Shown here in pieces: positions 24,885 to 41,500 of a stretch of 64,000 nucleotides of DNA. The DNA lies in NCBI RefSeq assembly GCF_050920415.1, contig NZ_CP169310.1. One strand, given 5' to 3'. The translations under genes were made by a program, and so were the position numbers. The notes beneath the pieces are model-generated. The model saw nothing but the letters and a program-made list of their open reading frames with translations. It had not been told where the DNA came from and made no database searches. The stretch's first letter is position 1. Each line of letters starts with the position of its first letter. The DNA is from Escherichia coli (GTDB lineage: Bacteria > Pseudomonadota > Gammaproteobacteria > Enterobacterales > Enterobacteriaceae).

Positions 24885-24896
24885 GGAAGGTGACTC

Positions 24897-25784: not shown

Positions 25785-26430
25785 AAGCAACATGATTCTG
25801 CGTACCAAATTTATCGACCGTGCTTGTCACTGGACGGTGGTAATAAGCTTCTTCCTGGTGTCACTTTCCGGTATTGCGCTTTTCTTCCCAACATTGCAAT
25901 GGCTTACTGAAACCTTCGGTACACCGCAAATGGGACGAATTCTACATCCGTTTATCGGAGTGATGATTTTCATCATGCTGATGTTTATGTTCGTTCGTTT
26001 TGTATACCACAATATTCCCGATAAACAGGATCTTCCTTGGATTAAAGGGATCGTTGATGTACTTAAAGGCAATGAGCATAACGTCGCTGATGTGGGGAAA
26101 TACAACGCAGGGCAGAAAATGATGTTTTGGAGCATCATGAGCCTGATTCTGGTATTACTGGTTACCGGCGTTATTATCTGGAGGCCATACTTTGCCCATT
26201 ATTTCTCAATTAACATAGTTCGTTGGTGTTTGTTAATCCACGCGACAGCAGCTATTGTACTGATTCACGCCATTCTGATTCATATATACATGGCGTTTTG
26301 GGTAAAAGGTTCAATTAAAGGTATGATTGAAGGGAAAGTTAGTCGACGCTGGGCGAAGAAACACCATCCTCGCTGGTATCGTGAGGTTGAATCTACTGAA
26401 AAAGAAACAACGGAATTACAGTCTAAGTAA
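25777..26430 (+). CDS. fdnI: Formate dehydrogenase gamma subunit (cytochrome b556)
   Basis: 217 aa from [22 protein letters not shown]...; it looks very similar to E. coli FdnI as I recall it. The start overlaps the fdnH end. Confidence 0.9.
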
Positions 26431-26496: not shown

Positions 26497-26960
26497 GCTA
26501 CACTGTAAGCGTCAACGGAGCACCGTATTGACGCTTATTTATTGGTGAGAACTACGTTCCATGGCAGGAGTTCGTCAACACGGTTGGAGGGCCATTCCGG
26601 CAGTACGCTCAGAATATGGCGCAGATACGCTTCCGGATCGATACCGTTCAGACGGCAGGTGTCGCGATCAGCCCGTACAGCAGTGCACCACGCTCGCCGC
26701 CGTGATCGCTACCGAAGAACACGTAATTTTTCTTTCCGAGACAGACAGCACGAAGCGCTCTTTCCGCTGTGTTATTGTCCGCCTCCGCCAGACCGTCATC
26801 ACTGTAATAACAGAGGACGTCCCACTGATTCAGTACATAGCTGAACGCTTCGCCCAGTCTGGAGTTTTTCGACAGCGTGCCATTCTTCTCCACCATCCAT
26901 TCATGCAGCGACGTCAGTAACGCTTTGCTTCGCTGCTGCCTGACTGCTATTCACCGGAAA
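26497..26960 (-). pseudogene. IS66-family right end plus frameshifted 3' part of tnpC
   Basis: IR gtaagcgtcaacgg... at 26497. Minus-strand fragments read ...NNTAERALRAVCLGKKNYVFFGSDHGGERGALLYGLI... and ...PEAYLRHILSVLPEWPSNRVDELLPWN. Confidence 0.7.
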
Positions 26961-26979
26961 GGAGCCAGTCAGTGAATAC

Positions 26980-27135
26980 CTAGTGAAATCGCTTCACCAG
27001 AGAAAAAATAGCGGTTTTGCTGACACCAGTCTGCGCAGAAATGCGCGGGTACGACAGTGACTCGTCAAATCTCAGCTGTAGCACACGCGGGATTAATTCC
27101 GGATTATCTGCCAGTACCGCCTTTCGTGCATTCAT
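26980..27135 (-). CDS. Small (51-aa) HTH-like protein, possibly IS- or resolvase-derived
   Basis: Hand translation gives MNARKAVLADNPELIPRVLQLRFDESLSYPRISAQTGVSKTAIFSLVKRFH*, which contains an HTH-like SYPRISAQTGVSKTAIFSLV segment. Confidence 0.35.
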   Translation of the reverse strand: MNARKAVLADNPELIPRVLQLRFDESLSYPRISAQTGVSKTAIFSLVKRFH

Positions 27136-27336: not shown

Positions 27337-28509
27337 TTAATCTCGTGAATATATATCACGAGTATATACTTTATCTCTGACATCCATTAATTCATCTGTA
27401 ATTCTGTTCGCGAGTATAATGTCTGACTTTTTTTTGAATACAGGCAATTCATTGACTAATATTAAATCACTTACTGTTTTATTTTGCAATATTGGTTCAT
27501 ATATAATAATAGATATGTCTCTTGACTTTAGTTGACGGATGATATCCATAACGGCAGACTCACGGAAGTTATCTGAACCATTTTTCATAATAACTCGATA
27601 AAAACCCACTACTTTATGTTTTTTTTCCAATACTCTCTGTACAATAAAAGATTTACGTGTATCGTTTGCTCTCACTGTAGCAGTAATAATATCGCAGTGT
27701 ATATTTAGTTTATCATAGTTTGCTTTCAGTTGTTTCGTATCTTTTGGCAGACAATATCCACCATAACCAAATGATGGGTTATTATAATAATCACCAATTC
27801 TTCTATCCAGACAGACACCTCTGATTATATCTTTAGTGTTCAGCCCCGTAATTTCAGCATAGGTATCAAGTTCATTGAAAAATGCCACTCTTGTAGCGAG
27901 AAAAGCATTGGAAAATAGTTTTATTGCTTCAGCTTCTGCAGGCTCTGTGAACAAAACGGGTACATCCCTTTTCATTGCAGCATTTTTCATAATACTGGCA
28001 AAATGCCTCGCGCACTCTGAACGCTCTCCGATAATAATTCGAGATGGATAGAGATTATCATATAGTGCTTTCCCTTCACGTAAGAATTCTGGCGAAAATA
28101 TTATTTTGTCAGTGCAATATTTATGTCTGACTTTTTTTGTAAATCCAACAGGGATCGTTGATTTAATGATTATCACTGCCTGTGGATTAAATTTTACCAC
28201 ATCTTCTATAACTGACTCCACAGAAGCAGTATCAAAGAATCCTGTATTAGGATCATAATCAGTTGGAGTAGCAATTATAACATAATCAGCATCTAGGTAA
28301 GCTTCACTTTTATGCGTGGTTGCTTTAAAACAAATATTCCCATTTTGGAATACCTCCCGTATTTCATCATCATCAAGCGGTGAAATTCGTTTGTTCAACT
28401 GCTCAACCCTAATGGCATCAATATCAAATGCCGTCACATTATGATAACGTGCAAGAAGTAGTGCATTGGATAACCCAACGTATCCAGTTCCTGAAACGGT
28501 AATATTCAT
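27337..28509 (-). CDS. ugd: UDP-glucose 6-dehydrogenase
   Basis: 390 aa; [20 protein letters not shown]...[24 protein letters not shown]...[14 protein letters not shown] is collinear with E. coli Ugd. Last gene of the operon. Confidence 0.9.
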
Positions 28510-28540
28510 ATTTCACACCATAAAAATAACGATTATTCAG

Positions 28541-29881
28541 TTAAATTTTTATTTCTACTTCTAGACCGACTGAATATGCAGGGGAACTGCGGGGAGAATT
28601 TTCAGTAGATGATGCCCGAAAACGCTCTGATGGCATAAACATCCCTAGCAATAGCTCAGTTTTTATATTTTTACTAAATTCGTAGCCCCAGATAAGATCT
28701 ATTTCACTCCCGAGATCCAGAGTAGAACTATTGTCATAACGGGACTTCAGGTCTGGATCATGAGAAGATAAAAAATCCCTGTCTGATTGTCTATAATAAT
28801 GATATACAAGATCCAGTGAACTGCTTGGGGATATATCCATTCCAGTGCCAACCGTCAGGATACGTATATTTGTCAACTCTGGAGATAATGTATTACCATA
28901 AATACTGAATTTAGTATTTCCACCAAAGCTGGCTTCATTCGACTGCAATCCGGTCTGATGATATTTTTTACTGGCTATGGCGTAACCCAGAGTAAAGCGG
29001 CTGCGCGATGGACTGTTATGAATCCAGGTAAGCCCTGCATCAATTACCCTCCCCTGATATTTTTTTTCGGATTTTTCTGCATACATTCCTCCGACCTCCA
29101 GCCAGTGCCGCCATCCCGTATCCGATGTACTGTGGGAACGTATCCCGTAAAAAGACTGACGCTCATATACATCATGCGTGTTTTTATTTACAGCAAAATA
29201 AATACCGGTATCCCAGTCCTTTTCCACACTGTACTGCAAAAATGCAGATTGTACGGATATCACACTTTTGTTACGTGTTGTATCATCAAGCAAATCTCGC
29301 TGCCAGTAATTCACACGTCCTGCCACCATCTCCACCTGCCAGTCATCTTTTTTCCAGCGCCCCCATATACCATCAAGATTTTCATCAAAAAGCCATTCTC
29401 TGACATCGCGGTACAGCCACCGCCCGGCTCGAATTTCTGCTCCGACTTCACGCAAACTTCCCCCTATATATCCCTGAGTCAGTTCCAGTCGGGTTTTATG
29501 TTCTTCTGGTTTACCGGAATCCCTCCTGGTTTTGTTTTTCAGTTCAGCTTCCGCCACACCATACAGAGAAGACTTTCTGGCAATCTCAATTCTTAAACGA
29601 TATTGTGGCTCAAATTCATGTCGGTTTTCCTGCTTTTGTCCCTTCCTTAATGTTCTGTTCCGCCAGCTCTCGCCTTCCAGCTTCATTGTAGAATGAAACC
29701 GTATCAGTTGTTCCCGGTTACTTCTGTCCCCGGACAGACTGTTTTTTTTTGGACGAAATAACTCATTGTCAACAGACTCTGAAGCCTGTACCGGAACTAC
29801 TCCACAAACAAAAAACAGAAGAAAATAACCACAGAATCGACCGGAACCGTTTCTGAACATAATTAAAAATACTCCATGCAC
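28541..29881 (-). CDS. Outer-membrane beta-barrel, AlgE/alginate-export-family-like (the start is more likely the ATG at 29860)
   Basis: Signal-peptide-like MFRNGSGRFCGYFLLFFVCGVVPVQA|SE, with alternating beta-strand pattern throughout. The C-terminal LGSEIDLIWGYEFSKNIKTELLLGMFMPSERF...VGLEVEIKI resembles the alginate_exp motif (LG.E.DL......l......g.F.PG..F). Confidence 0.55.
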   Translation of the reverse strand: MHGVFLIMFRNGSGRFCGYFLLFFVCGVVPVQASESVDNELFRPKKNSLSGDRSNREQLIRFHSTMKLEGESWRNRTLRKGQKQENRHEFEPQYRLRIEIARKSSLYGVAEAELKNKTRRDSGKPEEHKTRLELTQGYIGGSLREVGAEIRAGRWLYRDVREWLFDENLDGIWGRWKKDDWQVEMVAGRVNYWQRDLLDDTTRNKSVISVQSAFLQYSVEKDWDTGIYFAVNKNTHDVYERQSFYGIRSHSTSDTGWRHWLEVGGMYAEKSEKKYQGRVIDAGLTWIHNSPSRSRFTLGYAIASKKYHQTGLQSNEASFGGNTKFSIYGNTLSPELTNIRILTVGTGMDISPSSSLDLVYHYYRQSDRDFLSSHDPDLKSRYDNSSTLDLGSEIDLIWGYEFSKNIKTELLLGMFMPSERFRASSTENSPRSSPAYSVGLEVEIKI

Positions 29882-30876
29882 TTTTCACAATAAGCAAGCA
29901 AAAGTAGGGTGGTATGCTTCCGCCCCGGAATTCGGGTACTCAAAAAAATATGCCGGGCCAGTGATAACAACCGGAACCCTTCCGTTTCTTTCACTGTTAC
30001 CCCGGACATGTGGCTGAGCCATGACTCCACAAATGCTGTTTCATGTGCATGGAATATCCGGTAATCCCCCTTATAGCGGATCCCCAGTTCACAGACATGG
30101 GCCAGCCAGTTACCAGCATCCAGAGCGGAAGGCCCGGTACAACTCAGGTCAAAATCAAGAAGGGTCAGACAGCGTCTGTCATTTCGGTTACTGATAATCT
30201 GATCAGGGTAAAAATCACGATGAAGGCAGCTTTTCCGTGTACCCGAAAGAACAGCAGCCACTTCACGCAGCCCTTTCATCAACGCATCGATACGTTTATA
30301 AAGGGCAACGTTTTCCTCTCCTGCTATTGTCAGTCCCTGCTCAAGTACAGACAGTTCATCTGTCAGAGTCCACTGCCGTCCATTCACGACCCGGGCCAGT
30401 TCACCATGCTGCTGAAGGGCAGAAAGTGCGTATCCGACAGCTGTGCCAGTACTTATCTGCTCGTGCCTAGAAAACACATTTGAAATCAGTACGTCTGTCA
30501 GCAAAAGACCATCAACATGACGCTGCAGCCACATTCTCTTTTCCGGCAAAATCATCAACGGTTCCGGCACACTGATCCGGTTCTGCCGATGAAAACCATC
30601 AGACCACAATGCCTGCTGACAGCAGTATGAAAATTTATCAACCCCCTTTTCACGATACTTCCCAACAATCAGCAGAGGAGAAGAACTCCCTCGTCTCCCA
30701 AAATGGTATTCAATCAGAGCCCTACGCCCAGGCTTCTGCCGTAATAACCGGGTACTAATAAGTTGACTATCTGCTGTCACACAAGGGAGTTTGAGGAGAA
30801 AAGATTGCATTTCATGGACAGAACAAAGCTCCTGCAACGTTGCCTGCCACTCAGGAGATAGGTGTAGCTGACGCAC
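29863..30876 (-). CDS. Kinase-fold phosphotransferase (APH / protein-kinase-like superfamily), substrate unknown
   Basis: 337 aa with an N-lobe LLRQKPGRRALIEYHF, a catalytic-loop-like CLHRDFYPDQII and a metal-site-like LTLLDFDLS. Confidence 0.55.
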   Translation of the reverse strand: MRQLHLSPEWQATLQELCSVHEMQSFLLKLPCVTADSQLISTRLLRQKPGRRALIEYHFGRRGSSSPLLIVGKYREKGVDKFSYCCQQALWSDGFHRQNRISVPEPLMILPEKRMWLQRHVDGLLLTDVLISNVFSRHEQISTGTAVGYALSALQQHGELARVVNGRQWTLTDELSVLEQGLTIAGEENVALYKRIDALMKGLREVAAVLSGTRKSCLHRDFYPDQIISNRNDRRCLTLLDFDLSCTGPSALDAGNWLAHVCELGIRYKGDYRIFHAHETAFVESWLSHMSGVTVKETEGFRLLSLARHIFLSTRIPGRKHTTLLLLAYCEKCMEYF

Positions 30877-32176
30877 AGATATCCTCCACTCTGTTCAGTA
30901 ACAGTTCTGCTTTTTTCGGCCAGTAGGCATCCCGTTTACGAAAAGGCTCCACAACAAGACACATCAGCGCTTTTGCGGTATACCATTCGATATCAAAAGC
31001 ATTGATCTTTCGTTCCATTTTGTATCCGGCAAGCAGTGCGTCATGAATTCCTCTTGCCTGAGCAGCGGTGAGCTCTCCGTTAATGACATCCATTTCAGTC
31101 CGGGCAATAAAGCTGCCGGGATCACCAGCAGGATGACCATATACACAACGATCCCAGTCGATGATATTCACACTCCGGCCATCCTCTGCAACGATAACCT
31201 GATCAGCAGAAAAATCTCCGTGCAAAAGAACCTGCTCATGGCTCAGCCATTCAGATAACGCCTTCAGACGAAGAATACAATGACTAAAACGTTCCGCGAG
31301 CTCTGGATAAAGTGCAGTCACCATGCCATGTTCCTGCCAGAGCTGCTGGAGCGCCTCCCGGCAGGTTTGTTTCTCTGGCAGGAAATAAGGCTCATTATGG
31401 ATCTTGGCCAGTGACTTTCCAGTCAACGTGACCAAACTGAGATATTCCTGACCATGCAGAAAATAATCCAGACTTTTTCCCGCTATCCATCGGGTAGCGA
31501 TCAGTCTGTCTGTTTCATTCACCCCCAGAAGTTCAATATGAGCCAGAGAGGATCCGGCCTGGCTTCCCCGTAACTGACGAAAAAACTCTTTTTCTGCCGC
31601 ACAACGAATGACCGCAAAAGGATGTTCATCTCTATAAACACCAATGACACAACGACGCCCGGGTTTGTAACGCAAAAAATGCCAGCGTTCCCGCTCTTGT
31701 CCGGTGACTGAGCCTCGTGCATTCTGCAGCAGTGCTGTATATTTATTATTATACAGTGCGGCCAGGCATAACTTGCGATCCAGTTGTGGTGAAGAAATAA
31801 ATGCAGCCAGTTCATCAAGTAATACAGGGGTTTCAGGCCAGTCACTGGTATTTTTCCCGTCAGAAACTAATCGACTGCAATAAGATATAAATCTGGAGCG
31901 CGTCAGCGCTCTGACAAAACAAAAATACGGTATCTCATCAGCAATATAGAGCGTCACCCCCACGACACAACTGGTTTTAGGTTTGTAACGGATGTAGGTA
32001 ACGCTTACACGCTTCAGGGATAAAAAAGGCTTTTGCTGTCGCAGAACGCCAGTCAGCACCGTTTCGTCAAGTAGTGCAGCAAGCCCGGGCAGCATGGAAT
32101 CCCGGCTAACAAGAGCGCGCTCAACATCATTCAGCATTCCCTTTTCCCTCCTTCTGCAGTAACCACAGTTCTGCAT
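30851..32176 (-). CDS. Kinase-fold phosphotransferase with an extra N-terminal pseudo-N-lobe (the start may be the ATG at 32137)
   Basis: 441 aa with two KP(K/G)..C.(V/I)GV segments (YIRYKPKTSCVVGV; FLRYKPGRRCVIGVY), then LLHGDFSADQVIV and NIIDWDRCVYGHPAGDPG (APH-type HGD....N/D and DWD motifs). Confidence 0.55.
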   Translation of the reverse strand: MQNCGYCRRREKGMLNDVERALVSRDSMLPGLAALLDETVLTGVLRQQKPFLSLKRVSVTYIRYKPKTSCVVGVTLYIADEIPYFCFVRALTRSRFISYCSRLVSDGKNTSDWPETPVLLDELAAFISSPQLDRKLCLAALYNNKYTALLQNARGSVTGQERERWHFLRYKPGRRCVIGVYRDEHPFAVIRCAAEKEFFRQLRGSQAGSSLAHIELLGVNETDRLIATRWIAGKSLDYFLHGQEYLSLVTLTGKSLAKIHNEPYFLPEKQTCREALQQLWQEHGMVTALYPELAERFSHCILRLKALSEWLSHEQVLLHGDFSADQVIVAEDGRSVNIIDWDRCVYGHPAGDPGSFIARTEMDVINGELTAAQARGIHDALLAGYKMERKINAFDIEWYTAKALMCLVVEPFRKRDAYWPKKAELLLNRVEDICASATPIS

Positions 32177-33941
32177 AGCGTCCCTGTCGTGCCATCAGAG
32201 AATGGTGATTGCCTCGCTCCGTTATTTTTCCCTGCTCCATGAAAATAACTTCATCAGCCTGAGCGGCCAGAGATAAATCATGTGTGATAATCAGTGCTGT
32301 TTTATTCTTGAGGAGTCTTTTCAGCTCTGTAAAGACCGCCAGTTCATTTATACTATCCAGCCCTACACCTGGTTCATCAAGCAGAATAAAAGGCGTATTC
32401 AGGAGAATCACCCGGGCAATTGCTATGCGCTGTCGCTGCCCTCCGGAAAGCGTATTTCCACGTTCTCCTACTATAGTATTATATCCCTGTGGTAGCCCGC
32501 TGATGAACTCATGTGCATTGGCCTGTCTGGCCGCTGCAATTATTTCATCATCACTGAAGGTCTTTCCTGCTCCCAGCGTAATATTATCCCGAATACTGTA
32601 TCCGAATAACAGGGGCTCCTGAGGTAGATATCCAATCCTCTGACGCAGAGATGTCACACAAAACTCGTGCAACTCATTCTTTCCCAAAAGGATACGACCA
32701 GAATCCGGCTCATATAACCGTAACAATAAACGGCTGAGCGTGGATTTTCCAGCCCCCGAGGGTCCGGTCACTGCCAGAGTATGACCCGACGGGAGATGGA
32801 AACTGACATTATGAAGAGTTCTACCGCACTCTCCATTCTTTCCCTCTCGGTAAGTGAAACTAACATTTTCAAAGCGAATATCCGGCATCTCTGATAACGG
32901 CAGTTTTTTTCCCTCAACAGAGTATTCTACTGGCAGATAATGCAGTAACCCTGCAACCCTTTCTCCAGCTGTAAATGCCCTGATCAGACGCGTACTGTAT
33001 CTTGCAAACTCACGTACAGGACGGAACATATTTTTCAGGTAGGATAAAAAAACCAGTAATTCTCCGGCTGACATTTTTCCGCTCAGAACACTTCTGGCTC
33101 CCAGCAGTAATACCATAGCTGTGATCCCCGCAATCAACAGTTCAATCAGACACTCCAGCCCGACAGCCTGTTTTCTGGCTTTCACATTCTGTTGTAGACT
33201 CTGTCGTTCCGGTCCCTCAAATGCCCTTATGGCATCTTTCTCCAGTGCCATGGCCTGAACTGTTGCTATCGCAGTCATGAACTCTGCTGAACGGGCAGCA
33301 AGTTCCCCTTCATGCTGTCTCTGAACCCGGTTGACATCTCTGATCCGTCTTCCTCTCCAGACTGTCACCAGCACAAGAAGTGGAACCGGAAGCAATGCTA
33401 CCACTGTCAGTTGCCAGTTCAGCCAGAGCATGATGCCGGCCATACCAGTGAACACTGTAAGGCTAGATAACAGAGGCATTACAGCTGTCACCATCGCATC
33501 ACGCATCATTCCGATATCATTTATCAGTCTCATAGTCAGATCACCGGCTCTCAACTCCTGATGAGCTGAAAGGGGTAATCTTAGCAGATGTGTAAACAGT
33601 GACTTCCGGATAATGCTCAGGATCCTGCTTCCGGCCAAGGCCATTCTGGTTGCGGTGAAATAGCCACATAATCCCTTTAGCACAGCTATAGCAATAACAC
33701 CCAGAGCACATCCCGGTAACAGATAGTCTTGGATAGTGTCATTCCCGACCGAAAACCAAGAAAAGTCATCATATCTGGCTTTTCCCAGAACAAAATCCAC
33801 AGCAAGTGCTAATGGCCAGGGTTCCAGTAACCGGATAATACTGGTCAGAAGTAATGTCAGAAATACACTTGACAACAGCATCTTCTGTGTCCGGATGGCC
33901 GGCCAGAACGTTCGTAATACCTGCTGATGTTCAGACTTCAT
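32127..33941 (-). CDS. Fused TMD-NBD ABC exporter (MsbA / NdvA-ChvA type half-transporter)
   Basis: 604 aa with six N-terminal hydrophobic segments, Walker A GPSGAGKST, signature LSGGQRQR and Walker B FILLDEPG. Confidence 0.85.
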   Translation of the reverse strand: MKSEHQQVLRTFWPAIRTQKMLLSSVFLTLLLTSIIRLLEPWPLALAVDFVLGKARYDDFSWFSVGNDTIQDYLLPGCALGVIAIAVLKGLCGYFTATRMALAGSRILSIIRKSLFTHLLRLPLSAHQELRAGDLTMRLINDIGMMRDAMVTAVMPLLSSLTVFTGMAGIMLWLNWQLTVVALLPVPLLVLVTVWRGRRIRDVNRVQRQHEGELAARSAEFMTAIATVQAMALEKDAIRAFEGPERQSLQQNVKARKQAVGLECLIELLIAGITAMVLLLGARSVLSGKMSAGELLVFLSYLKNMFRPVREFARYSTRLIRAFTAGERVAGLLHYLPVEYSVEGKKLPLSEMPDIRFENVSFTYREGKNGECGRTLHNVSFHLPSGHTLAVTGPSGAGKSTLSRLLLRLYEPDSGRILLGKNELHEFCVTSLRQRIGYLPQEPLLFGYSIRDNITLGAGKTFSDDEIIAAARQANAHEFISGLPQGYNTIVGERGNTLSGGQRQRIAIARVILLNTPFILLDEPGVGLDSINELAVFTELKRLLKNKTALIITHDLSLAAQADEVIFMEQGKITERGNHHSLMARQGRYAELWLLQKEGKGNAE

Positions 33942-35100
33942 CCAATCCTCCAGTCAGCAGCGTAATATCGGCATATAACCAGATTTTCCTAAGCACATTC
34001 TCCCAGCTATTCTGTTTCACATATAGACCTCCGGCTTCCCCCATTTTCCGGCACAACGAAGGGGAGTCAGCCAAAGTGATAATTGCATCAGATAGTGCTG
34101 ACGGTGATTCTGGTGGGATCAGAAGTCCGGTTTTTTCATGCTTTACAATGCTATCAAGATCTCCGGTTCGAGATGTGATTACTGGCAATTCTGCCGCCAT
34201 ATATTCATAAATTTTAAGAGGCGAAAAATAAAAATCATCGAAATGCGGATAGGGAGCAACCCCCGCATCAGCACAAGCAAGCAATGCAGGAACATCACAA
34301 TGAGCAACACCACCATGAAATACCACTGCGTTATCTACACCAGCACTCCGGAAAGCATTCTCCAGTGCTGGACGCTCCGGTCCATCCCCGATGATAGAAA
34401 GACTAATATCTGTTCTCTGACGACGCAGTAAAATAAACGCTTCTGCCAAGGTATCCATCCCGTGCCAGGGCTTCAGGGTTCCGGAAAATACCACAGTAAA
34501 AACGCTACCCCGCGCCATGTTTTTTTTATAAAAAGAAGCCGGATTCACGCCGTTTCGGACAACATGGACTTTTCCTTCTGTTGCAGGTAATGTCTCCAAC
34601 CAACGACGGATACCGGGCGAAACTGCTATCACCGTACTGGCATACTCCAGTACAAGCTCCAGTACTTGATAAGCTTCATGCTCCATCACCATCTTTCGCC
34701 AGCGTTTCTGCTCCAGCGGAAGGGGAGCATTAACCTCCAGTATGCCCGGGATCCCTGCATTCCGGGCATATTCCATCCCGGCAAAACTCCAGAGAGAATA
34801 GCGCTCATAAACAACATCAAAAGGACCGGCAGACACCAACCTACTCTTCAGTTCTTGATTTCCCCTGAGTGCTTGACTGGCTTTTTCCTCATCTGAATCT
34901 GTTCCGGATAAATCAAAAAGAGGGACAACCCTGACAGCACGAAATTCTTCCGGTACTGGCGAAAATCCCCGGCAGGTAAACAATGTCACATCCATACCGG
35001 CGTTCAGCATTTCCCTGAGCATTCCCTGGATATGAATGGAAGCTCCTTTATATCCAAAAACAGGAATACCAGGATCTGCACAAACATAGGCCACTCTCAC
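33931..35100 (-). CDS. GT4-family glycosyltransferase
   Basis: 389 aa; MRVAYVCADPGIPVFGYKGASIHIQ..., with a C-terminal E-x7-E-type region KIYEYMAAELPVITSRTGDLDSIVKHEKTGLL. Confidence 0.8.
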   Translation of the reverse strand: MRVAYVCADPGIPVFGYKGASIHIQGMLREMLNAGMDVTLFTCRGFSPVPEEFRAVRVVPLFDLSGTDSDEEKASQALRGNQELKSRLVSAGPFDVVYERYSLWSFAGMEYARNAGIPGILEVNAPLPLEQKRWRKMVMEHEAYQVLELVLEYASTVIAVSPGIRRWLETLPATEGKVHVVRNGVNPASFYKKNMARGSVFTVVFSGTLKPWHGMDTLAEAFILLRRQRTDISLSIIGDGPERPALENAFRSAGVDNAVVFHGGVAHCDVPALLACADAGVAPYPHFDDFYFSPLKIYEYMAAELPVITSRTGDLDSIVKHEKTGLLIPPESPSALSDAIITLADSPSLCRKMGEAGGLYVKQNSWENVLRKIWLYADITLLTGGLDEV

Positions 35101-36344
35101 TGAACTCTCTCCTGTATTCCTGCCTGAATTGCATCCTCAAATATTTCACGCAGTCGCCGGGTGTTACGATCAATATCAAATGCATCTTCAATTCGTTTTC
35201 TCGCATTCAGCGCCAGATACTTCCTCAGCACAGCATCACCAGCCATTCTTTCAATGGCATCAGCCATTACACCCGGTTTTTCAGGATCAATACAGAATCC
35301 AGTGTGGCCGTCAGTCACCAGTTCAGGGATCCCGGCAACCCGGGTAGAAATAACAGGCAATCCCTGCGCCATGGCCTCCAGTAATACTGTCGGCAACCCA
35401 TCCCGGTCCCCATCACTACTGATAATGCAGGGAGCAACCAGCATCGTGGCCCGGTGCATAGCCATTTTCACATATCCCTGAGGTTGGGCTCCGGTCAGTG
35501 TGATGACAGACGACAGACCACTCTCTTCAACCTGTCGCCTCAGCATCTCTTTTAGAGGACCATCTCCCACTAAAGTGCAGTGAAAATTCATTCCCCGACA
35601 ATACAACAAACGCAGCGCTTCAATCAGCGTACTGAAGCCCTTTTTAACGACCAAACGTCCCACCGCTAATATTTCAGTGTTTTCCGGCCCTATGAGATTG
35701 TCGCGACACAGGTATTGTTGTAAATCAATACCGTTATAAAGCCTCTCCAGTGAAGCCAGATTTCCACCATACTTTTTCTGTAACCAGGCACAATTATAAT
35801 CTGATACAGTAATCACCCGGCTCGCATCCCGGAGCTTCAGGGAAATTGCAGAGTCTTCAGGATAATCAAAATAAATATCTTTCGCATGTGCGGTAAAGCT
35901 GTACGTGATCCCTGCGAGTTTTGCTGCCAAGCGAGCGACTGTGGTCGCTTTTGTAGCAAAATGTGCATGAAGATGCCTGATCCCTCTTTCCTGTACAGTT
36001 GCTGCCAACATCACTGCCTGAGCAAATTCGTGTACATGATTATATCCGGGATCGGAAAAACATCCGGAAAGTTCCGGTAGTAACGGAAAAGAACGGCGCA
36101 GTAAATCATGATAATATTCAGCATTATATTGCCTAGAATTAAAACGAGTTACCGGTGCTTTTACCCGGGAAATAGATTCCTGAAAAAAAGCCTCCTGAAC
36201 ATCTCCAAGGGCGAAAATATCCAGCTTCATTCCGGCTCGTTCATGAGCGAGAATTTCATTGACAATAAATGTTTCTGAAAAGCGGGGATAGCGTTTAACC
36301 ACATATCCGACATAAGGGTGTTTATTATCCATTACACTCTCCAT
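35097..36344 (-). CDS. GT4-family glycosyltransferase (WcaL-like architecture)
   Basis: 415 aa; ...GDGPLKEML...GLPTVLLEAMAQGLPVISTRVAGIPELVTDGHTGF. There is a 4-nt ATGA overlap with the next gene. Confidence 0.8.
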   Translation of the reverse strand: MESVMDNKHPYVGYVVKRYPRFSETFIVNEILAHERAGMKLDIFALGDVQEAFFQESISRVKAPVTRFNSRQYNAEYYHDLLRRSFPLLPELSGCFSDPGYNHVHEFAQAVMLAATVQERGIRHLHAHFATKATTVARLAAKLAGITYSFTAHAKDIYFDYPEDSAISLKLRDASRVITVSDYNCAWLQKKYGGNLASLERLYNGIDLQQYLCRDNLIGPENTEILAVGRLVVKKGFSTLIEALRLLYCRGMNFHCTLVGDGPLKEMLRRQVEESGLSSVITLTGAQPQGYVKMAMHRATMLVAPCIISSDGDRDGLPTVLLEAMAQGLPVISTRVAGIPELVTDGHTGFCIDPEKPGVMADAIERMAGDAVLRKYLALNARKRIEDAFDIDRNTRRLREIFEDAIQAGIQERVQ

Positions 36345-36354
36345 GCCATTGATT

Positions 36355-37515
36355 TTAATTATTTTCTCTCCGCGCTGTAAATATCGCGTTCATTTTTTCT
36401 GTAAAGGAATGCAGCCCATTCAGACTGAGGTAAAGTCGTGGATCTGAAGGACACCAGTCGGAAATCAGCCAATCAGTTATTGACTGTGGCGTCAGACTGT
36501 CCGGATGCAAACATGTAACCAGATTCTTTTCTGCCATCCGTGAAGCACGTATCCATTGCTCAAGACGAGGAACAATACGGGGAATAATCAATGCCCGTTT
36601 CCGTAATGAAAGAATTTCCCGTAAGGTGTTATATCCCCCCATTGCCACCACGCTGTGCGTATGCTGTAGAAGAAAAAGAGGATCAGATACAAAACGAATA
36701 ATATGTAAATCATTACGCATGGACGCAATACGCTGTAATGATGTCACTTCCTCCCGAGCCATCTGGCTACCGGTAAGAATAACACCGTCCATCCCTGGCG
36801 GTAACAATGTCTCTGCAAATACAGATGCAAGGTGGTAGCCATCCTGCCCTCCCCCTGTAAGACATAATACGAATGGACGAGAAATCAGAGACTGAAATTG
36901 CTCATCCTGTAACACCGATGGAGATAATGGAACATCCGGATATCCAAGAAAACTGATTTTTCGGTATACTGATGGTTCCGGAGCAAGATCAAGCGACAAA
37001 TCATAGAATGAACGATCGCCATAAATCCATATATCAGAATAATACTGACGGACAATCGTATAATTATCTGCAGCATGCCATTGATGACGAACAACTGATG
37101 GTTCATCAATAATATCCCTGAGTCCAAGAATCAGATGCACATTATCATCAACCAATTCCGGAAGCACCGGCAGCAGTTCTGATAACGCCCCAGCAGGTAC
37201 ATTATCCACAACCATTACATCCGGACAATATTCACTCAATGCAGCTCGAATTATCTGTCTCCGAAGGCTAACCAATTTCCGGGTATTATTGCCCAGTGAC
37301 CGGGGGTGATATTTGCCGCACAACGTTTTGGCATAGGCTGGTAACGTAAGAATATCTGAGCGTTCAGGTAGTGTAAATAATCCGGATTCACGGGCACTGT
37401 TAATAATCAAAATTTCAGTATCAGAAAACCTTTTCTGAACTGCTCCTGCAAGCAAAAGATTTCGCCGTAAATGCCCAAGCCCCATCGTATCATGAGAATA
37501 AAACGCCAGCTTCAT
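36355..37515 (-). CDS. GT-B-fold glycosyltransferase (MurG/GT28-like, COG4671-type); first gene of the operon
   Basis: 386 aa; MKLAFYSHDTMGLGHLRRNLLLAGAV... and ...LCLTGGGQDGYHL...VVAMGGYNTLREILSLRKRALIIPR resemble MurG/UDP-glycosyltransferase C-terminal motifs. Confidence 0.6.
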   Translation of the reverse strand: MKLAFYSHDTMGLGHLRRNLLLAGAVQKRFSDTEILIINSARESGLFTLPERSDILTLPAYAKTLCGKYHPRSLGNNTRKLVSLRRQIIRAALSEYCPDVMVVDNVPAGALSELLPVLPELVDDNVHLILGLRDIIDEPSVVRHQWHAADNYTIVRQYYSDIWIYGDRSFYDLSLDLAPEPSVYRKISFLGYPDVPLSPSVLQDEQFQSLISRPFVLCLTGGGQDGYHLASVFAETLLPPGMDGVILTGSQMAREEVTSLQRIASMRNDLHIIRFVSDPLFLLQHTHSVVAMGGYNTLREILSLRKRALIIPRIVPRLEQWIRASRMAEKNLVTCLHPDSLTPQSITDWLISDWCPSDPRLYLSLNGLHSFTEKMNAIFTARRENN

Positions 37516-37748
37516 ATCATCAATAAATTTAAAATGTCAATATTTCTATCATTTTTAAATAGCTACCGCACTAATTATAACAATTAGCATTAAACTTTTT
37601 AACCCATTTTGTTTTTAGATTTAATGTTTTAAATACTGGCAGATACTCAGCAATTTTCCCAACGAGATAAAATGCTATTATTTTTTAACATCCTTTTACA
37701 CCAGTACCCAAGTATATAAAATAAATAATAAGTCATCTTTCTAAATAA

Positions 37749-37797
37749 TTTTAACTAATTGTGTACTCCTCTTTAAAATGTGCACAATTAGTTAAAA
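37749..37797. promoter_or_regulatory. Near-perfect 18-bp inverted repeat (13-nt spacer) upstream of the glycan operon; candidate operator shared with 52871-52917
   Basis: ttttaactaattgtgtac-N13-gtgcacaattagttaaaa (17/18 complementary). The right arm matches gtgcacaattagctaaca at 52902-52919 in 16/18 positions. Confidence 0.5.
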
Positions 37798-37909
37798 CTT
37801 GGCTTCTACATTCTCTAGATGTACACATCCCTGTTTGCAAGGCTGAGGTGTACTGGCAATAGCGGACACCACCATTTGTTCTTTTTCTAAGCAGCCATCT
37901 GATAATATT

Positions 37910-38350
37910 TTATCCTGAAGGCTGCCGGGGAGATATTCCCAGACGAGAGTGACGACGCTGACGATTGTAAAAAATCTCAATGTATTCCCGTATTACTGAG
38001 ATGGCCTCATCCCAGCTCTTAAAACGATAGTTGCTCAGACTTTCATTTTTCAGTGTTCCCCAGAAGCTTTCCAACGAAGCGTTGTCGTAACAGTTACCTT
38101 TACGCGACATTGATGTTTTCAGACCAAACTGTTCCTGTATGGCCCTGTAATCGTATGCTCAGTACTGTGAACCACGATCGGAGTGGTGGATTATCCCGGC
38201 AGGTGGGCGCTGGTTCCTGAGCACCATAAACAGGGCTTTACCCGTCAACTCTTTCGTCATGCGCTCTCCCATGGCGTAACCGACAATTTCGCTCGTATAA
38301 ACATCTTTGACGCCAGCGATATACAGCCATCCTTCCCGGGTGGCAACATA
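37910..38350 (-). pseudogene. IS3-family OrfB 3' portion (frameshifted)
   Basis: MSRKGNCYDNASLESFWGTLKNESL...YNRQRRHSRLG. Upstream frames read ...GWLYIAGVKDVYTSEIVGYAMGERMTKELTGKAL...HHSDRGSQY. Confidence 0.7.
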
Positions 38351-38360
38351 CGTTATATCT

Positions 38361-38593: not shown

Positions 38594-41500
38594 TCAGAAA
38601 TCATACCGAATACCCAGTCTCCCTTCAGCATCGGTCTTAAAGTAACCATCAAAACTGCTGTTCACTTTTGCCTGTACTGACAGTTTATCTGTCAGCTTTC
38701 CGTTGATACCAAACGAAACGGTATAGCGGTCAGCTTTCTCTGCATCATAGTGACGGGCTTTCCAGTCATCACGTAGGGTCATTCCGGGCATATCGTTAAA
38801 CGTGATATTCCGCCAGATACCTGCCTTCAGCGTCATATTTCCAAATAATTTTTCTGCCTCAACCCCGGCTTTCAGCCACAAGGCATCGCCATCATGAAGC
38901 TCCACGCTCCGCTCCCGGCCCTGCAGACGATTTCCGTCCACCCGTGCACCGTTCAGTGAAACAGTCGGTGTTATCGACATATCAAGAGGGGATGCATACA
39001 TCTTCCACCCGCCACGGATACCCGCTGTCAGGATATGGCTTTTTGCTCTGCCGGACAGGTCACTCAGCTCTCCCTGAATAGTGTAATCTTCTGACAGCTC
39101 CCGGTATCCGACCATACCATCCACAAACAGACCACAGTCAAAGGATTTACCTGCCAGAACATGCACGCCCCACAGGCTGAAATCATCCCGGTAGCCATCT
39201 GTGCTGCTGTGCCCCCGGTAAAACTCTGCCCCCATCCCCCACCAGGTATTACTGGCAGCAGACTGGCGAAATCCCACATTCAGTCCACTCTGGTTTAGGC
39301 TGAAGTCGTCATATCCACCATGACTGTACCCTGTCATGGCCCATACACCACCGTCTGCATCGCTGTTGTCCACCACCTGTGTCCAGCGGTCAGCGCTGTC
39401 GCTGAGAATAAACTCACGGGCGGAAAACATGACACGCGCTTTCTTCAGAAGAGATGTGTTATCCGCGCCCTTAAACAGCGTACTGCCATTCACCGTCGTG
39501 CCCGCATTCTCTCCCGGAGAATCAGGGGAAGGCGTCACACCACTGCTGTTATTCCCTTCAGACACAATACCATCAGCCTCAGTGCTTCCTGTATTACCTG
39601 TATCCGGTGCAACCGGAGAGGTTGTATCTGTCACACCATCACTGACACCCGGTGATATCTGTGATTCTGTTGTTCCGGCATGACTTTTCAGTTGCCAGTA
39701 AACTCTGCCGTCTTTCTCCTGCACCTGTGTAATACCATCAGCCTCAGTGCTTCCTGTATTACCTGTATCCGGTGCAACCGGAGAGGTTGTATCTGTCACA
39801 CCATCACTGACATCCGGTGATATCTGAGATTCTGTTGTTCCGGCATGACTTTTCAGTTGCCAGTAAACTCTGCCGTCTTTCTCCTGCACCTGTGTGTCAG
39901 GGGTATAAACAGTAAACCCCCTGTTCAGGCTGGCAAAGGAGAAGTACCCGTGAGAAGTTCCGACCGGTGCAGATGCCAGAGTCAGGTCATTTTTCAGTGT
40001 GAGAGTCTGGTCAAACAGGGTGGACAGGTCCAGAGTGTTATGTCCGCCAGTTGCCTTATTCAGAATATCAATCCGGTCGCCCGTGTTGTCGGCAGTGCTG
40101 ACACCCATAGCGATATTCATACTGCTGGCATGCAGTGTGTTTACCGTCAGCGTTTTCGGCGACCAGTTGTCTGTCACAAGGGAGAGCGTCCCGCCTTTGC
40201 TTCTGAACGAATCCAGCGTGGAGCTTTTCGTCATATTCCAGTGACTTCGACTAGACAACTCTACATGAGAGCTGGCATGACCGCTGATATCACCATTAAA
40301 GGTTGCGTTCATGATATCCAGTGTCGTCTTCCCGTTCAGGACAGCGCCCCCATTAAACACGCTACGGTCTGCATCCTTCACAGCCTCTGATGTGCCTTCT
40401 TCCAGCGTAAAGGTCGTACCGTTACCGTCGTTTTTGTCGATAAAAACCCGGCTGTCGCCCAGTGTGACCGTCGAATCTGTTGCTTCAAGCATGGTGTTCA
40501 GCGTGGCATTACGGCCAAGGCCAAAATCGGTGTTCTTCAGTGACAGGTTGTCAAAGGTAAAGCTCCGGTTCTCCCAGTCCTCCTGACTGAATGATGTGGG
40601 CTGAGTCAGAACCGAATGGTCTCCACTGGCAGCCAGTTTGTCAGCCACAGACTGAGTATTGTATGCATGGATAACCGGATGCCCCTGCAACGTCAGACGC
40701 CCGTTTTCCTGGGTAAATTTACCGGATATATCAGCGGAGCCATCCATGACCAGTACAGCGCTCTGCCCAACTTCAACCACATTAGTTACATCCACGTTTC
40801 CTTTTAGCTGCCCATGATACAGATATTCTTCTGTATCGAAATCCAGCGTAATAGAGGCATGATTATCAGAATTATTTGCCAGCACAGCACCATAATCTGC
40901 GGCCTTCAGCTGATGAAACGTCAGATCGTTACCATTAACATCCAGAATCCCCCCACGATATCCCCAAGAAATGGTATCCGGGTTTACCTGTCGGTCATCA
41001 GTTAGTACCACAGTCGGTCGGCCACTGGCAATATTTACACTGCTGAAAGCCTGCACCTGTCCTTTACTGTCCGCCTGCTGACTCAGAACAACCTTCCCAT
41101 CCCCGACCTTCAGACCTCCCTCATTGATACCTGTACCCTGTACCGTCAGCGTACCCTCACCGATTTTATGCAGATTGTCACCTGCCTCGCCGTTGACCAG
41201 CCAGTTTACGGACACTCCTTTATCCACAATAATACCAGCCCCAGTCCAGGTACTTCCGTTAGAGGTTGTTACTGTGTAATTATCACGGAACGTCAGGGAA
41301 CCCGCGCCCTGCGAAACCGAATCCTTCAGTTCAATCTGCCCATTCTGCCCCAGAAATTCCAGATTCTTACCGGCATTCAGGTCATTTCCCAGCTGTCCGT
41401 GCATGTCATATGTGATGGTCCCTTGGGTCAGGGTGCCAACTCCGGTGCTGCTGTCAAAGCTCCACTCCAGTACTCCCCCCTCAGATGAACTGAACGTAAC

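Follow-up and report, generated by a model that had tools for sequence, protein, structure and literature searches.

An eight-gene Escherichia coli plasmid operon built on a widespread six-gene cassette, possibly for assembly and export of an anionic glycan

Assembly and flipping of the LPS inner core depend on a set of the WaaG/WaaP/MsbA type, and PglK and the Wzk protein of H. pylori are TMD-NBD half-transporters. In an ABC-dependent pathway, WbdD is the precedent for a kinase-fold glycan terminator (PMC3482155). AlgE is the translocon of the polyuronate alginate, and the current scheme couples barrels of 16-18 strands either to a synthase pathway or to a short OPX protein (PMC9601211).

The window analysed here, a stretch of 64,000 nucleotides of E. 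coli DNA, carries at positions 27337-37515 eight intact and tightly coupled minus-strand ORFs of a virulence plasmid, as given by the ORF listing (Table 1). From GTa to ugd the junctions measure +10, -4, -11, -11 (or -50), -26, +2 (or -19) and +31 nt, with the start of GT4c overlapping the stop of GT4b by 4 nt. This translational coupling, recomputed here, agrees with the overlaps and gaps of the preliminary description, whose parts list (GTa, two GT4 enzymes, an ABC protein, two kinases, a barrel and Ugd) is backed by family matches and motifs. The operon is a real and intact unit and no chance arrangement, since the same gene order occurs in about 80 independent loci.

Table 1. Features of the operon and its flanks (window coordinates)
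Feature	Position	Strand	Length	Remarks
GTa	36355-37515	-	386 aa	
GT4b	35097-36344	-	415 aa	
GT4c	33931-35100	-	389 aa	
ABC	32127-33941	-	604 aa	
K1	30851-32176/32137	-	441/428 aa	alternative upstream start 32176
K2	29863-30876	-	337 aa	
barrel	28541-29881/29860	-	446/439 aa	longer ORF start 29881
ugd	27337-28509	-	390 aa	
IS66-family remnants (transposase pseudogene + accessory-protein fragment)	26535-27135			RefSeq annotation, identical plasmids; downstream boundary
IS3-family transposase pseudogene	37887-38359			RefSeq annotation and sequence read; upstream boundary
Candidate promoter TTAAAA-17-TATAAT, extended -10 TG	37574-37602	-		consensus match, 10/12 positions
Inverted repeat CTCGTGATATATATTCACGAG	27342-27362	-		pattern match; overlaps ugd end

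A scan found relatives in 289 species genomes, and gene order was read in 80 loci of this set. The order GTa-GT4b-GT4c-ABC-K1-K2 is near-invariant in these ~80 loci, which are spread over many phyla and include Enterobacterales, Rhodobacterales, Thauera, Chromatiales, Marinobacter, Chloroflexi, Actinobacteria, Planctomycetes, Acidobacteria and cyanobacteria. Judged from this synteny, the six genes are a fixed, ancient and widely distributed cassette, with the barrel and ugd as recurrent accessories. The invariant order argues for a single pathway that makes a single class of product. Apart from the cassette, no biosynthetic gene is found repeatedly in the neighbourhoods of the related loci, which suggests that the cassette is self-sufficient with common UDP-sugars and ATP. 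Its distribution is patchy and HGT-like, and a two-component system sometimes adjoins it. A peculiar mosaic assembled by IS elements is ruled out, six of the eight genes being this fixed and widespread cassette. In Nostoc, a divergent paralogous set is accompanied by a histidine phosphatase. Most of the relatives are bacteria of the environment, such as marine Rhodobacterales, Chloroflexi, Thauera and cyanobacteria, which argues against a dedicated virulence factor; the short glycoconjugate and the surface or host-interaction role proposed earlier had the plasmid position as their sole basis. The cluster had been described as not recognisable under any name, and no named system was found for it in full-text literature, NCBIfam, PADLOC or Rfam. 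Being widespread and with no published function found, the cassette offers a tractable entry to an unstudied bacterial glycan pathway.

The exact eight-gene form is present in 17 of 5426 complete E. coli genomes, in all of them on large ST-toxin/F4-fimbria plasmids (sources: cattle, food, humans and a crow), with the eight genes intact and 99.3-100% identical. A second allele, at 79-91% amino-acid identity, has the same eight genes including the K1/K2 split. In most other taxa K1 and K2 are fused into one protein of ~760 aa, and separate genes are also found in Actinobacteria and Chloroflexi. RefSeq copies annotate the IS debris that had been noticed on both sides as IS66 and IS3 remnants, the IS66 pieces lying at 26535-26950 and 26983-27135 (window coordinate = RefSeq locus coordinate + 15336). 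The AT-richness ascribed to the whole block holds only for ugd (34.7% GC) and the upstream intergenic region: the barrel has 43.2% and GTa 43.8%, and the remaining five genes, at 46-49%, resemble the window mean (47.4%) and fdnGH (49%). The candidate promoter precedes the GTa start codon by ~60 nt, within an AT-rich leader of ~370 nt, and the inverted repeat at the end of ugd is a possible operon terminator. The IS remnants, the rarity of the operon, the kinase split and the leader, which is of the kind that H-NS presumably silences, would fit a silent or decaying IS-delivered passenger, unexpressed or nonfunctional in E. coli. This is highly improbable in view of the eight intact ORFs with their catalytic motifs kept, the conservation among plasmids of such different sources, the divergent second allele that retains all eight genes and the split, the normal occurrence of split kinases in other phyla, and the strong promoter-like site predicted by its consensus match.

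GTa, the first gene of the cassette, is predicted to encode a GT-B glycosyltransferase of the GT1/GT28 structural class (MurG, MGD and natural-product GTs). It is nearer to GT1 small-molecule GTs than to MurG, and its nearest structural relatives mostly act on small hydrophobic aglycones or lipids. GT4b and GT4c match PF00534/PF13692/PF13439 in Pfam. The former (PF00534 1.5e-32, also PF13692) is probably a retaining GT4 enzyme of the WcaL/EpsE/TuaC kind, whose NCBIfam models (EpsE 177 bits, WcaL, TuaC) all match under their cut-offs; its orthologues, 41-59% identical, hold the same position in all loci. The latter (PF13692 4e-29, PF00534, PF13439), also conserved in position, is probably a second retaining GT4 enzyme. 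Neither Wzx/Wzy/Wzc/Wza, KpsMTED, an initiating phosphoglycosyltransferase nor a synthase was found in the block or ~20 kb on either side, and the parts list matches none of the three classical export pathways (Wzx/Wzy, ABC-2 with Wzm/Wzt or KpsMT, and synthase), as first proposed. The absence of an initiating transferase stands but weighs less than was assumed, because wecA is chromosomal in E. coli and GTa resembles GT1/MurG/MGD enzymes with lipid or non-sugar acceptors.

The products of K1 and K2 both pass the APH PF01636 cut-off of 23.2 bits (54.9 and 26.5 bits) and are predicted choline/aminoglycoside-kinase-fold (CAK) kinases, in agreement with the two APH-fold phosphotransferases expected. 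The catalytic residues are H306-G-D308...Q313 and D327-W-D329 in K1, which has an extra N-terminal cap resembling a duplicated N-lobe, and H219-R-D221...Q226 and D241-F-D243 in K2, where K73 is conserved. The motifs reported before (HGDFSADQ..IDWD and HRDFYPDQ..LDFD) are present, and motif comparison showed HxDxxxxQ and DxD to be kept family-wide. K1 shares its fold with choline, homoserine, methylthioribose, N-acetylhexosamine and antibiotic kinases; it resembles small-molecule kinases generally, with no specific sugar-kinase match, which counts against a glycan as the substrate. This fold also agrees with a product that is small and soluble, either a phospho-oligosaccharide or a glycoside, which would serve as a signal, public good or antimicrobial and be released by the ABC pump and the porin. 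Here three single-addition GTs would build a product of tri-saccharide scale on a common metabolite, and the APH-type phosphorylation would, as in producers of aminoglycosides, yield either the acceptor or a form protected for export. The number of GTs is exactly three throughout, genes for a polymerase, a chain-length regulator or a lipid carrier are lacking, and some characterised GT4s (MshA, BshA) take small-molecule acceptors, although both cassette GT4s match those NCBIfam models weakly, below cut-off. The patchy distribution, the occasional two-component system and the histidine phosphatase of the Nostoc set agree with it as well. On the other hand, tailoring and aglycone-synthesis genes are absent, neither a conserved small ORF nor a conserved RNA element was found upstream, nothing points to an acceptor, and the AlgE-family channel is known from polymer export (PMC9601211). 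We consider such a product unlikely.

The ABC protein (PF00664 2.5e-41, PF00005 3.3e-33) has five hydrophobic windows in its N-terminal half and matches ABCB1, Sav1866, BmrA and MsbA in the PDB. Its best bacterial family is MsbA (MsbA_lipidA 380 bits, cut-off 602), followed by the HepA family (320) and the NdvA-type glucan exporter (276), with the MsbA and NdvA equivalog scores under cut-off. These family matches bear out an MsbA/NdvA-type half-transporter, predicted to have the TMD-NBD architecture and the ABCB/MsbA/Sav1866 type IV exporter fold. ABCB-type exporters have better-established roles with lipids, lipid-linked glycans and cyclic glucans than with linear free polymers, which counts against export of a free polymer. 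The same architecture in PglK and Wzk raises an undecaprenyl-diphosphate-linked glycan, where WecA would prime Und-PP-GlcNAc, the MurG-like GTa and the GT4s would extend it and a PglK/Wzk-type flippase would turn it over; in E. coli, WaaL would then ligate it to lipid A-core, so that the plasmid would encode an O-antigen-like decoration of the LPS. An initiating enzyme of their own is normally missing from E. coli O-antigen clusters, in line with this locus. However, the NCBIfam PglK model matches the NBD only, in no phylum is a ligase, oligosaccharyltransferase or LCP gene found beside the cassette, neither the kinases nor the AlgE-type barrel would have a role, and GTa is not closest to MurG, so that this route appears distinctly unlikely.

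The barrel matches Alginate_exp PF13372 with 84.2 bits (cut-off 25.2) over model positions 9-391 of 395, and a profile of 20 barrel orthologues found AlgE as its sole PDB match (1.2e-18). By sequence it is a true homologue of AlgE and, with its hydrophobic N-terminus and signal peptide ...VPVQA|SE, conforms to the alginate-export-like barrel of the preliminary description. It lies directly after K2 in ~28 proteobacterial loci and was seen only in diderm Proteobacteria, its place being taken by an OprB porin in two cyanobacterial loci. Actinobacteria and Chloroflexi are monoderm and have no LPS, and their loci have no barrel. This is the pattern expected of an outer-membrane exit step, and the barrel appears to be an accessory part of the cassette; most Rhodobacterales loci have no adjoining barrel, which counts against release through it. 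The barrel-free cassettes of Actinobacteria, Chloroflexi and many Rhodobacterales agree with a phosphorylated glycolipid made by an LPS-core-like logic: GTa would glycosylate a membrane lipid (e.g. diacylglycerol or phosphatidylglycerol), the GT4s would add two more sugars, the kinases would phosphorylate these and the MsbA-like ABC protein would flip the anionic product, which stays anchored in the outer leaflet while the barrel is an accessory porin or serves another step. The MsbA family match, the GT-B set with kinase-fold sugar kinases and MsbA as in the LPS inner-core scheme, and the lack of an encoded lipid-carrier initiating enzyme all favour it, and the acceptors of GTa relatives fit a glycolipid as well as a primer. 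A glycolipid is nevertheless unlikely, as an AlgE homologue or cyanobacterial OprB lies directly downstream in ~30 diderm loci, such channels pass soluble solutes and not lipids, and the ABC protein is under the MsbA equivalog cut-off.

Ugd has all three UDPG_MGDP_dh domains in Pfam, scores 342 bits with TIGR03026 (above cut-off) and 568 with PRK15057 (below the cut-off of 757), and is a probable UDP-glucose 6-dehydrogenase and low-GC add-on (GC3 24.6%). The plasmid protein shares 60% identity with K-12 Ugd and 52-55% with the Ugds linked to the cassette in Neisseria, Aggregatibacter and Brenneria. Since the cassette-linked Ugds (E. coli, Neisseria/Aggregatibacter, Brenneria) are no closer mutually (52-57%) than to K-12 Ugd (60-62%), the comparison points to ugd as an accessory recruited independently at least three times, and hence to UDP-glucuronic acid as a substrate. 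The glucuronic-acid content suggested earlier is strengthened by this recruitment in several lineages.

The gene families support the proposed glycan assembly and export operon. We tentatively propose, with a probability of about 0.45, that it makes and secretes an anionic, phosphorylated, glucuronic-acid-containing glycan, exported by the ABC protein and released through the barrel. Ugd would supply UDP-glucuronic acid, and the inverting GT1/GT28-type GTa would work at the inner face of the cytoplasmic membrane, attaching the first sugar to a membrane lipid or to another primer that is not a sugar. The retaining enzymes GT4b and GT4c would extend it to a short oligosaccharide, or to a polymer if they alternate. 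K1 and K2 would phosphorylate sugar hydroxyls with ATP, giving charge and/or a chain cap, as does the kinase domain of WbdD in E. coli O9a. The ABCB/MsbA-type homodimer would carry the finished product over the inner membrane, and the anionic chain would cross the outer membrane via the AlgE-type barrel. The AlgE partners AlgK, Alg44 and AlgX, and OPX, PCP and TPR proteins, are absent from the cassette neighbourhoods (in E. coli, ~20 kb), which counts against a polymer crossing the periplasm.

Compared with NdvA/ChvA cyclic beta-1,2-glucan export and with WaaG/WaaP/MsbA, the cassette shares an MsbA-like half-transporter for a cytoplasm-made glycan or glycolipid and, with the latter, GT4 transferases and kinase-fold sugar kinases acting before flipping. 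Unlike the first, it has no Cgs/NdvB synthase, and unlike the second, it also occurs in the LPS-less monoderms. With PglK/Wzk flipping it shares a single-polypeptide exporter beside soluble GT-B transferases and the absence of Wzx and Wzy, but it has kinases and an outer-membrane barrel in place of an initiating phosphoglycosyltransferase, oligosaccharyltransferase and ligase. As in the O9a system (WbdA/B/C, WbdD, Wzm/Wzt), GT-B (GT4) transferases would assemble the glycan in the cytoplasm, a protein-kinase-fold enzyme would phosphorylate it (PMC3482155) and an ABC transporter would export the finished product. The cassette differs in its fused half-transporter instead of the ABC-2 pair Wzm/Wzt, in its two CAK-fold kinases with neither methyltransferase nor coiled-coil ruler, in its dedicated barrel, and in showing no sign of WaaL-dependence. 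Alginate secretion (Alg8/Alg44, AlgK, AlgX, AlgE) has in common the homologous barrel and, probably, a uronic acid in the product. However, the cassette lacks a processive GT2 synthase, c-di-GMP receptor, TPR lipoprotein, epimerase and acetylase, and would use an ABC exporter at the inner membrane; it has neither of the partners, synthase or short OPX protein, to which the current scheme assigns 16-18-stranded barrels. The EpsX/EpsY composite translocon of M. xanthus also places an AlgE-like 18-stranded barrel outside a synthase pathway (PMC9601211), but no OPX (D1D2)/PCP partner lies within 20 kb of the cassette or recurs in related loci. Whereas EpsX is a structural AlgE analogue at 13% identity (PMC9601211), the cassette barrel is a member of the AlgE family at the sequence level.

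The eight minus-strand genes of the operon encode, in order, a GT1/GT28-like glycosyltransferase (GTa), two GT4 glycosyltransferases (GT4b and GT4c), an ABCB/MsbA-type half-transporter (ABC), two kinases of the choline/aminoglycoside-kinase (CAK) fold (K1 and K2), an AlgE-family outer-membrane protein (the barrel) and a UDP-glucose 6-dehydrogenase (Ugd). The junctions from GTa to ugd measure +10, -4, -11, -11 (or -50), -26, +2 (or -19) and +31 nt. This close and partly overlapping spacing, between -50 and +31 nt for co-directional genes, has the pattern of a putative single, translationally coupled operon, as the preliminary description had read it. A predicted promoter, rated strong by pattern match, lies within an AT-rich leader, and a predicted hairpin lies at the other end of the operon. 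The leader is very AT-rich (window GC 0.38-0.40), has several promoter-like sites that overlap one another and lie on both strands, and looks like the regions that are silenced by H-NS in E. coli. A search for riboswitches and leader RNAs in the window and in three related loci returned no Rfam family at the gathering score.

Positions of the features considered and loci in which the cassette neighbourhood was read
Feature	Sequence or organism	Position or locus	Strand	Remark
Eight-gene operon	window	27337-37515	-	co-directional ORFs (ORF listing of the window)
Leader	window	37516-37900		~370 nt, 5' of GTa
Promoter-like site, extended -10	window	37602-37574	-	~60 nt 5' of the first start codon; pattern match
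Hairpin	window	27362-27342	-	overlaps the 3' end of the last gene (ugd); pattern match
Barrel	window	28541-29881	-	
Barrel	NZ_CP012499.1	28366-29511		
fdnG-fdxH-fdnI	window	~21834-26430	+	formate dehydrogenase-N
S6-family autotransporter protease	window	38594-42433	-	1279 aa
Eight-gene operon, second allele	E. coli, GCA_049745855.1, contig JBMVIF010000034.1	L009, 4622-14821		
RTX-like protein	Loktanella	L004, 12333-13076		gene after the kinases; 247 aa
Divergent second set beside the canonical cassette	Nostoc parmelioides	L010, 526-9342		
Cassette neighbourhood	Mixta	L002, L003		
Cassette neighbourhood	Loktanella	L004, L005		
Cassette neighbourhood	Neisseria	L006		
Cassette neighbourhood	Georgenia (Actinobacteria)	L007		
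Cassette neighbourhood	Thauera	L008		
Cassette neighbourhood	second E. coli allele	L009		
Cassette neighbourhood	Nostoc	L010		
Cassette neighbourhood	Aggregatibacter	L011		

The debris of insertion sequences noted earlier on both sides of the block corresponds to remnants that RefSeq annotates, on identical plasmids, as IS66 and IS3. The whole block had also been described as AT-rich, which holds for ugd (34.7% GC; GC3 24.6%) and not for the five central genes, whose 46-49% GC is similar to the window average of 47.4% and to the adjacent fdn genes; the seven genes other than ugd span 43-49%. A complete formate dehydrogenase-N operon, fdnG-fdxH-fdnI, adjoins the glycan operon between IS21 and IS66 remnants and is an unusual cargo for a toxin and fimbria plasmid; fdnG requires an in-frame selenocysteine codon. 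Between its passenger and beta-domain, the S6-family autotransporter protease repeats about 57 aa in a near-perfect tandem duplication; the repeat unit, read in translation, is TQVQEKDGRVYWQLKSHAGTTESQISP[D/G]VSDGVTDTTSPVAPDTGNTGSTEADGI.

The order GTa-GT4-GT4-ABC-kinase(s) was found in all the neighbourhoods read. A wider search of one genome for each species with the K1 catalytic-loop motif gave confirmed relatives in 289 stretches or species genomes; 80 loci were retrieved for gene order, and tblastn searches with all eight proteins of the E. coli operon recovered the order GTa-GT4b-GT4c-ABC-K1-K2 in essentially all those that were sufficiently long. The loci belong to Enterobacterales, Rhodobacterales, Thauera/Rhodocyclaceae, Chromatiales, Marinobacter, Granulosicoccus, Chloroflexi, Actinobacteria, Planctomycetes, Acidobacteria and cyanobacteria. 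In most other bacteria, K1 and K2 homologues are the N-terminal and C-terminal halves of a single protein of about 760 aa, and where the E. coli K2 query matched nothing a separate, more divergent K2 gene lies directly 3' of K1. An exhaustive HMMER search over 1.84 billion representatives returned 287 clusters at E<=1e-30, a number that rises to 1231 at E<=1e-10; most are of 750-810 aa. For GTa, the relatives at 42-57% identity number more than 5799.

A census of accessory genes found only three recurrent neighbours of this six-gene cassette: an AlgE-type barrel, a two-component system and Ugd. The census relied on a crude longest-ORF caller, which picked up spurious antisense ORFs in high-GC loci and may have missed rare accessories. 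Given the conserved gene order and so few recurrent neighbours, six of the eight operon genes are an old, self-contained unit to which the barrel and Ugd are add-ons. The barrel occurs in about 28 loci, all from Proteobacteria, and usually directly 3' of K2; an OprB porin takes its position in two cyanobacterial loci. The two-component system, divergent and upstream in about 20 loci, was rejected as a regulatory clue, since it is a generic OmpR/PhoB-type pair by NCBIfam and the neighbours in Mixta are the housekeeping NarQ/NarP.

The phosphate-transport genes pstS-pstA-pstB are divergent beside the cassette, upstream of GTa, in three Serratia loci (L018, L020 and L021), an adjacency that could be a coincidence or a tie to phosphate status. 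In Loktanella, an RTX-like calcium-binding protein with GGxGxD repeats is encoded next after the kinases; its sole relative is in L075, and it does not belong to the conserved parts of the cassette. In Nostoc parmelioides, where the canonical cassette comes with an OprB porin and a single APH kinase, a divergent second set lies beside it on the opposite strand; this set comprises two GT28C-like glycosyltransferases, an ABC exporter, a His_Phos_1 phosphatase, two GT4s and a GT2. The phosphatase in this paralogous set hints that phosphate is perhaps removed after export or glycosylation.

Linked Ugd genes were found in both E. coli alleles, Neisseria, Aggregatibacter and Brenneria. The E. coli protein has the three UDPG_MGDP_dh domains in Pfam, scores 342 bits with TIGR03026 (against 189.8), stays below the cut-off of the E. 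coli-type equivalog PRK15057 (568 against 757 bits) and is 60% identical to K-12 Ugd. The cassette-linked Ugds share 52-57% identity with each other (73% for Neisseria and Aggregatibacter), against 60-62% with the chromosomal K-12 Ugd. As they are no closer mutually than to the K-12 enzyme, and as the E. coli gene has a foreign composition, Ugd was recruited to the cassette in three or more independent events, and the ugd of the window is a separately acquired add-on. Such repeated recruitment points to UDP-glucuronic acid as a substrate, for which it is the best available evidence.

The family assignments of the preliminary description agree with Pfam, which recognises GT4b and GT4c as GT4s, ABC as an ABC_membrane plus ABC_tran half-transporter, K1 and K2 as APH-fold kinases, the barrel as Alginate_exp and Ugd as a three-domain UDP-glucose/GDP-mannose dehydrogenase. 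The barrel scored 84.2 bits with Alginate_exp (PF13372; cut-off 25.2), with residues 66-431 aligned on model positions 9-391 of 395. As a single sequence it had no match in the PDB; a profile of 20 cassette-linked barrels matched the AlgE chains 4afk, 4xnk and 3rbh only (E 1.2e-18), in line with the AlgE-like character first proposed. Its hydrophobic N-terminus, with a cleavage-like site VQA|SE, is a predicted signal peptide. RefSeq annotates this gene inconsistently on identical DNA, with 381 aa in strain GB089 and 439 aa in OkiPb01701; the shorter form opens a 176-nt gap and loses the signal peptide. The uninterrupted ORF of the window makes the longer form the likely one.

ABC scored 142.6 bits with PF00664 and 115.6 bits with PF00005, its translation has Walker A, signature and Walker B motifs in GPSGAGKST, LSGGQRQR and ILLDEP, and its matches in the PDB are ABCB1, Sav1866, BmrA and MsbA. 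By these features it is a predicted generic exporter of the ABCB/MsbA/Sav1866 type, with an N-terminal ABC_membrane domain fused to an ABC_tran nucleotide-binding domain (NBD). NCBIfam and the PDB gave generic ABCB matches only, with no indication of the substrate. Orthology to MsbA was rejected (TIGR02203, 380 bits against 602; PRK11176, 316 against 867), as was a cyclic-glucan exporter of the NdvA/ChvA type (PRK13657, 276 bits against 733; TIGR01192, 228 against 585), given also that the loci hold no glucan synthase. The protein stays below the HepA equivalog cut-off as well, and its match to PglK is confined to the NBD. We consider it very unlikely that the product is an Und-PP-linked glycan, flipped in the manner of PglK/Wzk and ligated to LPS.

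GT4b and GT4c both pass PF00534, PF13692 and PF13439. GTa had no match in Pfam, and a profile built from 40 of its orthologues matches MurG at 1e-4. It is a candidate member of the GT28/MurG family. A membrane-retained phosphoglycolipid, built with the logic of the LPS core, is favoured by the MsbA-like transporter and by the structural neighbours of GTa, although the porin genes speak against such a product, which we regard as unlikely. Hydrophobicity scans found no hydrophobic segments in GTa, the GT4s or the kinases, which places assembly in the cytoplasm or on the inner side of the membrane.

K1 and K2 reach the gathering score of PF01636 and carry the features of the APH/CAK fold. Their catalytic HxDxxxxQ loop and DxD metal site are kept across 80 fused homologues, so both kinases are probably active. 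In K1, the N-terminal cap repeats the protein's own N-lobe in degenerate form (z 8.4 against shuffles). The gene overlaps of ABC with K1 and of K1 with K2 point to a possible complex. No substrate class stands out in sequence and structure comparisons of the two proteins. Their identification as aminoglycoside or macrolide resistance phosphotransferases was discarded, since the sole match, to Mph(F), reached 17 bits with a cut-off at 650, and the context is one of glycan genes and not of resistance. Maltokinase (Mak/Pep2) was set aside as a candidate, judged by specific structural or sequence similarity above that to other CAK kinases and by linkage to TreS/GlgE. Weak similarities to LxmK and TvaE raised a RiPP or glycopeptide cluster, rejected because no small ORF is conserved upstream of GTa in about 85 loci; anti-phage defence was dismissed because the PADLOC matches are generic ATPase or kinase fragments only. 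That the kinases and glycosyltransferases make a small phospho-oligosaccharide or glycoside seems rather improbable.

We tentatively propose that the operon makes a secreted anionic glycan, with a probability of roughly 0.45. Ugd would supply UDP-GlcA; GTa, as an inverting enzyme, would prime on a lipid or other non-sugar acceptor; and the two retaining GT4s would lengthen the glycan. K1 and K2 may then add phosphate, giving charge to the chain and/or capping it, after the manner of the WbdD kinase domain in the O9a pathway (PMC3482155). A homodimer of ABC would export the product, and the barrel would release it. The acceptor, sugars, chain length, phosphorylation site and fate of the product are what we infer; the data themselves cover no more than families and motifs, synteny and coupling, the homology to AlgE and the pattern of ugd recruitment.

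A joint reading goes further, to a separate, phylum-spanning glycan route in which ATP-driven phosphorylation by the tandem CAK kinases would be an obligatory chemical step and not a decoration. For example, the kinases may create phosphate acceptors for GT-B sugar transfer, giving a sugar-phosphate (teichoic-acid-like) or phosphate-capped uronic-acid polymer without a polyprenol carrier, with ABCB-type export and, in diderms, release by a stand-alone AlgE-family barrel without an OPX, PCP or TPR partner. We hold this decidedly speculative version to be improbable as a whole.

The 10.2-kb block is 100% identical to pCFSAN004181P, a plasmid of E. coli GB089, and occurs at 99.3-100% identity in 17 of the 5426 complete E. 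coli genomes, plasmid-borne in all. It is also present in 10 PLSDB plasmids, all predicted to be conjugative. The host plasmids are large and carry ST-Ia, F4(K88)-like fimbriae and S6 peptidases, in hybrid STEC/ETEC and cryptic clade I strains (RefSeq annotation; PMC10100065). The paper on the clade I plasmid lists toxins, fimbriae, T6SS and SPATEs (PMC10100065); its main text contains neither 'polysaccharide' nor 'glycosyltransferase', and it does not appear to mention this cluster. The second E. coli allele (L009) has all eight genes, at 79-91% amino-acid identity, and adjoins another fimbrial/FaeA/DsbA cluster and a PAPS-reductase gene. This different setting indicates that the eight-gene form is older than the IS-bounded insertion in the plasmid of the window. 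That the operon is silent cargo is barely credible, since all ORFs are intact, the divergent allele retains all eight genes and the block is conserved at 99-100% across hosts.

The operon could affect surface charge, serology, and phage or host interactions. The host-interaction role proposed earlier draws on the plasmid location, beyond which it found no support; most relatives are environmental bacteria, and the cassette should not be read as a new, demonstrated virulence factor. On the side of pathogen genomics, ST-toxin/F4-fimbria/SPATE plasmids of hybrid STEC/ETEC and cryptic clade I strains carry it as unannotated cargo. More generally, the finding is a glycan cassette that is widespread, rigidly conserved and uncharacterised, has an unusual tandem kinase and is now accessible in a host with easy genetics. 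The E. coli copy, of 10 kb on a conjugative plasmid with one promoter-like site, is the most tractable for finding the product and the role of the kinases.

Current schemes of polysaccharide export comprise three routes, Wzx/Wzy, ABC-2 transporter and synthase, with passage of the outer membrane through OPX proteins, synthase-linked barrels or OPX/barrel composites (PMC9601211). Genes for OPX, PCP, TPR, Wzx/Wzy, ABC-2, synthase or initiating transferase were found nowhere within about 20 kb on either side. The view that the operon fits no classical route was borne out, as the membrane proteins that define the three routes, namely Wzx and Wzy with PCP/OPX, an ABC-2 permease and its separate ATPase (Wzm/Wzt, KpsMT) with KpsE/D, and a processive GT2 synthase, are absent from the eight genes, these flanks and the recurrent neighbours of related loci. 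Nor did NCBIfam, PADLOC, Rfam or the searched full-text literature hold a name or publication for the cassette; most subscription journals lie outside that search and may contain an earlier description.

AlgE has 18 strands and a positively charged pore. It serves a polyuronate as its translocon in the outer membrane, and AlgE-type barrels go with synthase pathways or short OPX proteins in current schemes (PMC9601211), whereas the operon has neither partner. Unlike the alginate system, the block, its 20-kb flanks and about 80 related loci lack the Alg8/Alg44 synthase, the TPR lipoprotein AlgK and the modification enzymes AlgG/X/L; the operon has an outer-membrane channel of the alginate kind and is not a member of that system. 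The operon also works somewhat like the ABC-transporter-dependent polysaccharide pathway with a kinase terminator, again without membership. The combination of an ABCB-type exporter, two small-molecule-type kinases and, in Proteobacteria, a stand-alone AlgE homologue falls outside current schemes. The proteins themselves are ordinary members of the GT4, CAK-kinase, ABCB, Alginate_exp and Ugd families. Since all its parts come from known families and its chemistry is deduced and not demonstrated, we rate the cassette as not categorically new and place it with the known principle of cytoplasmic assembly followed by ABC export.
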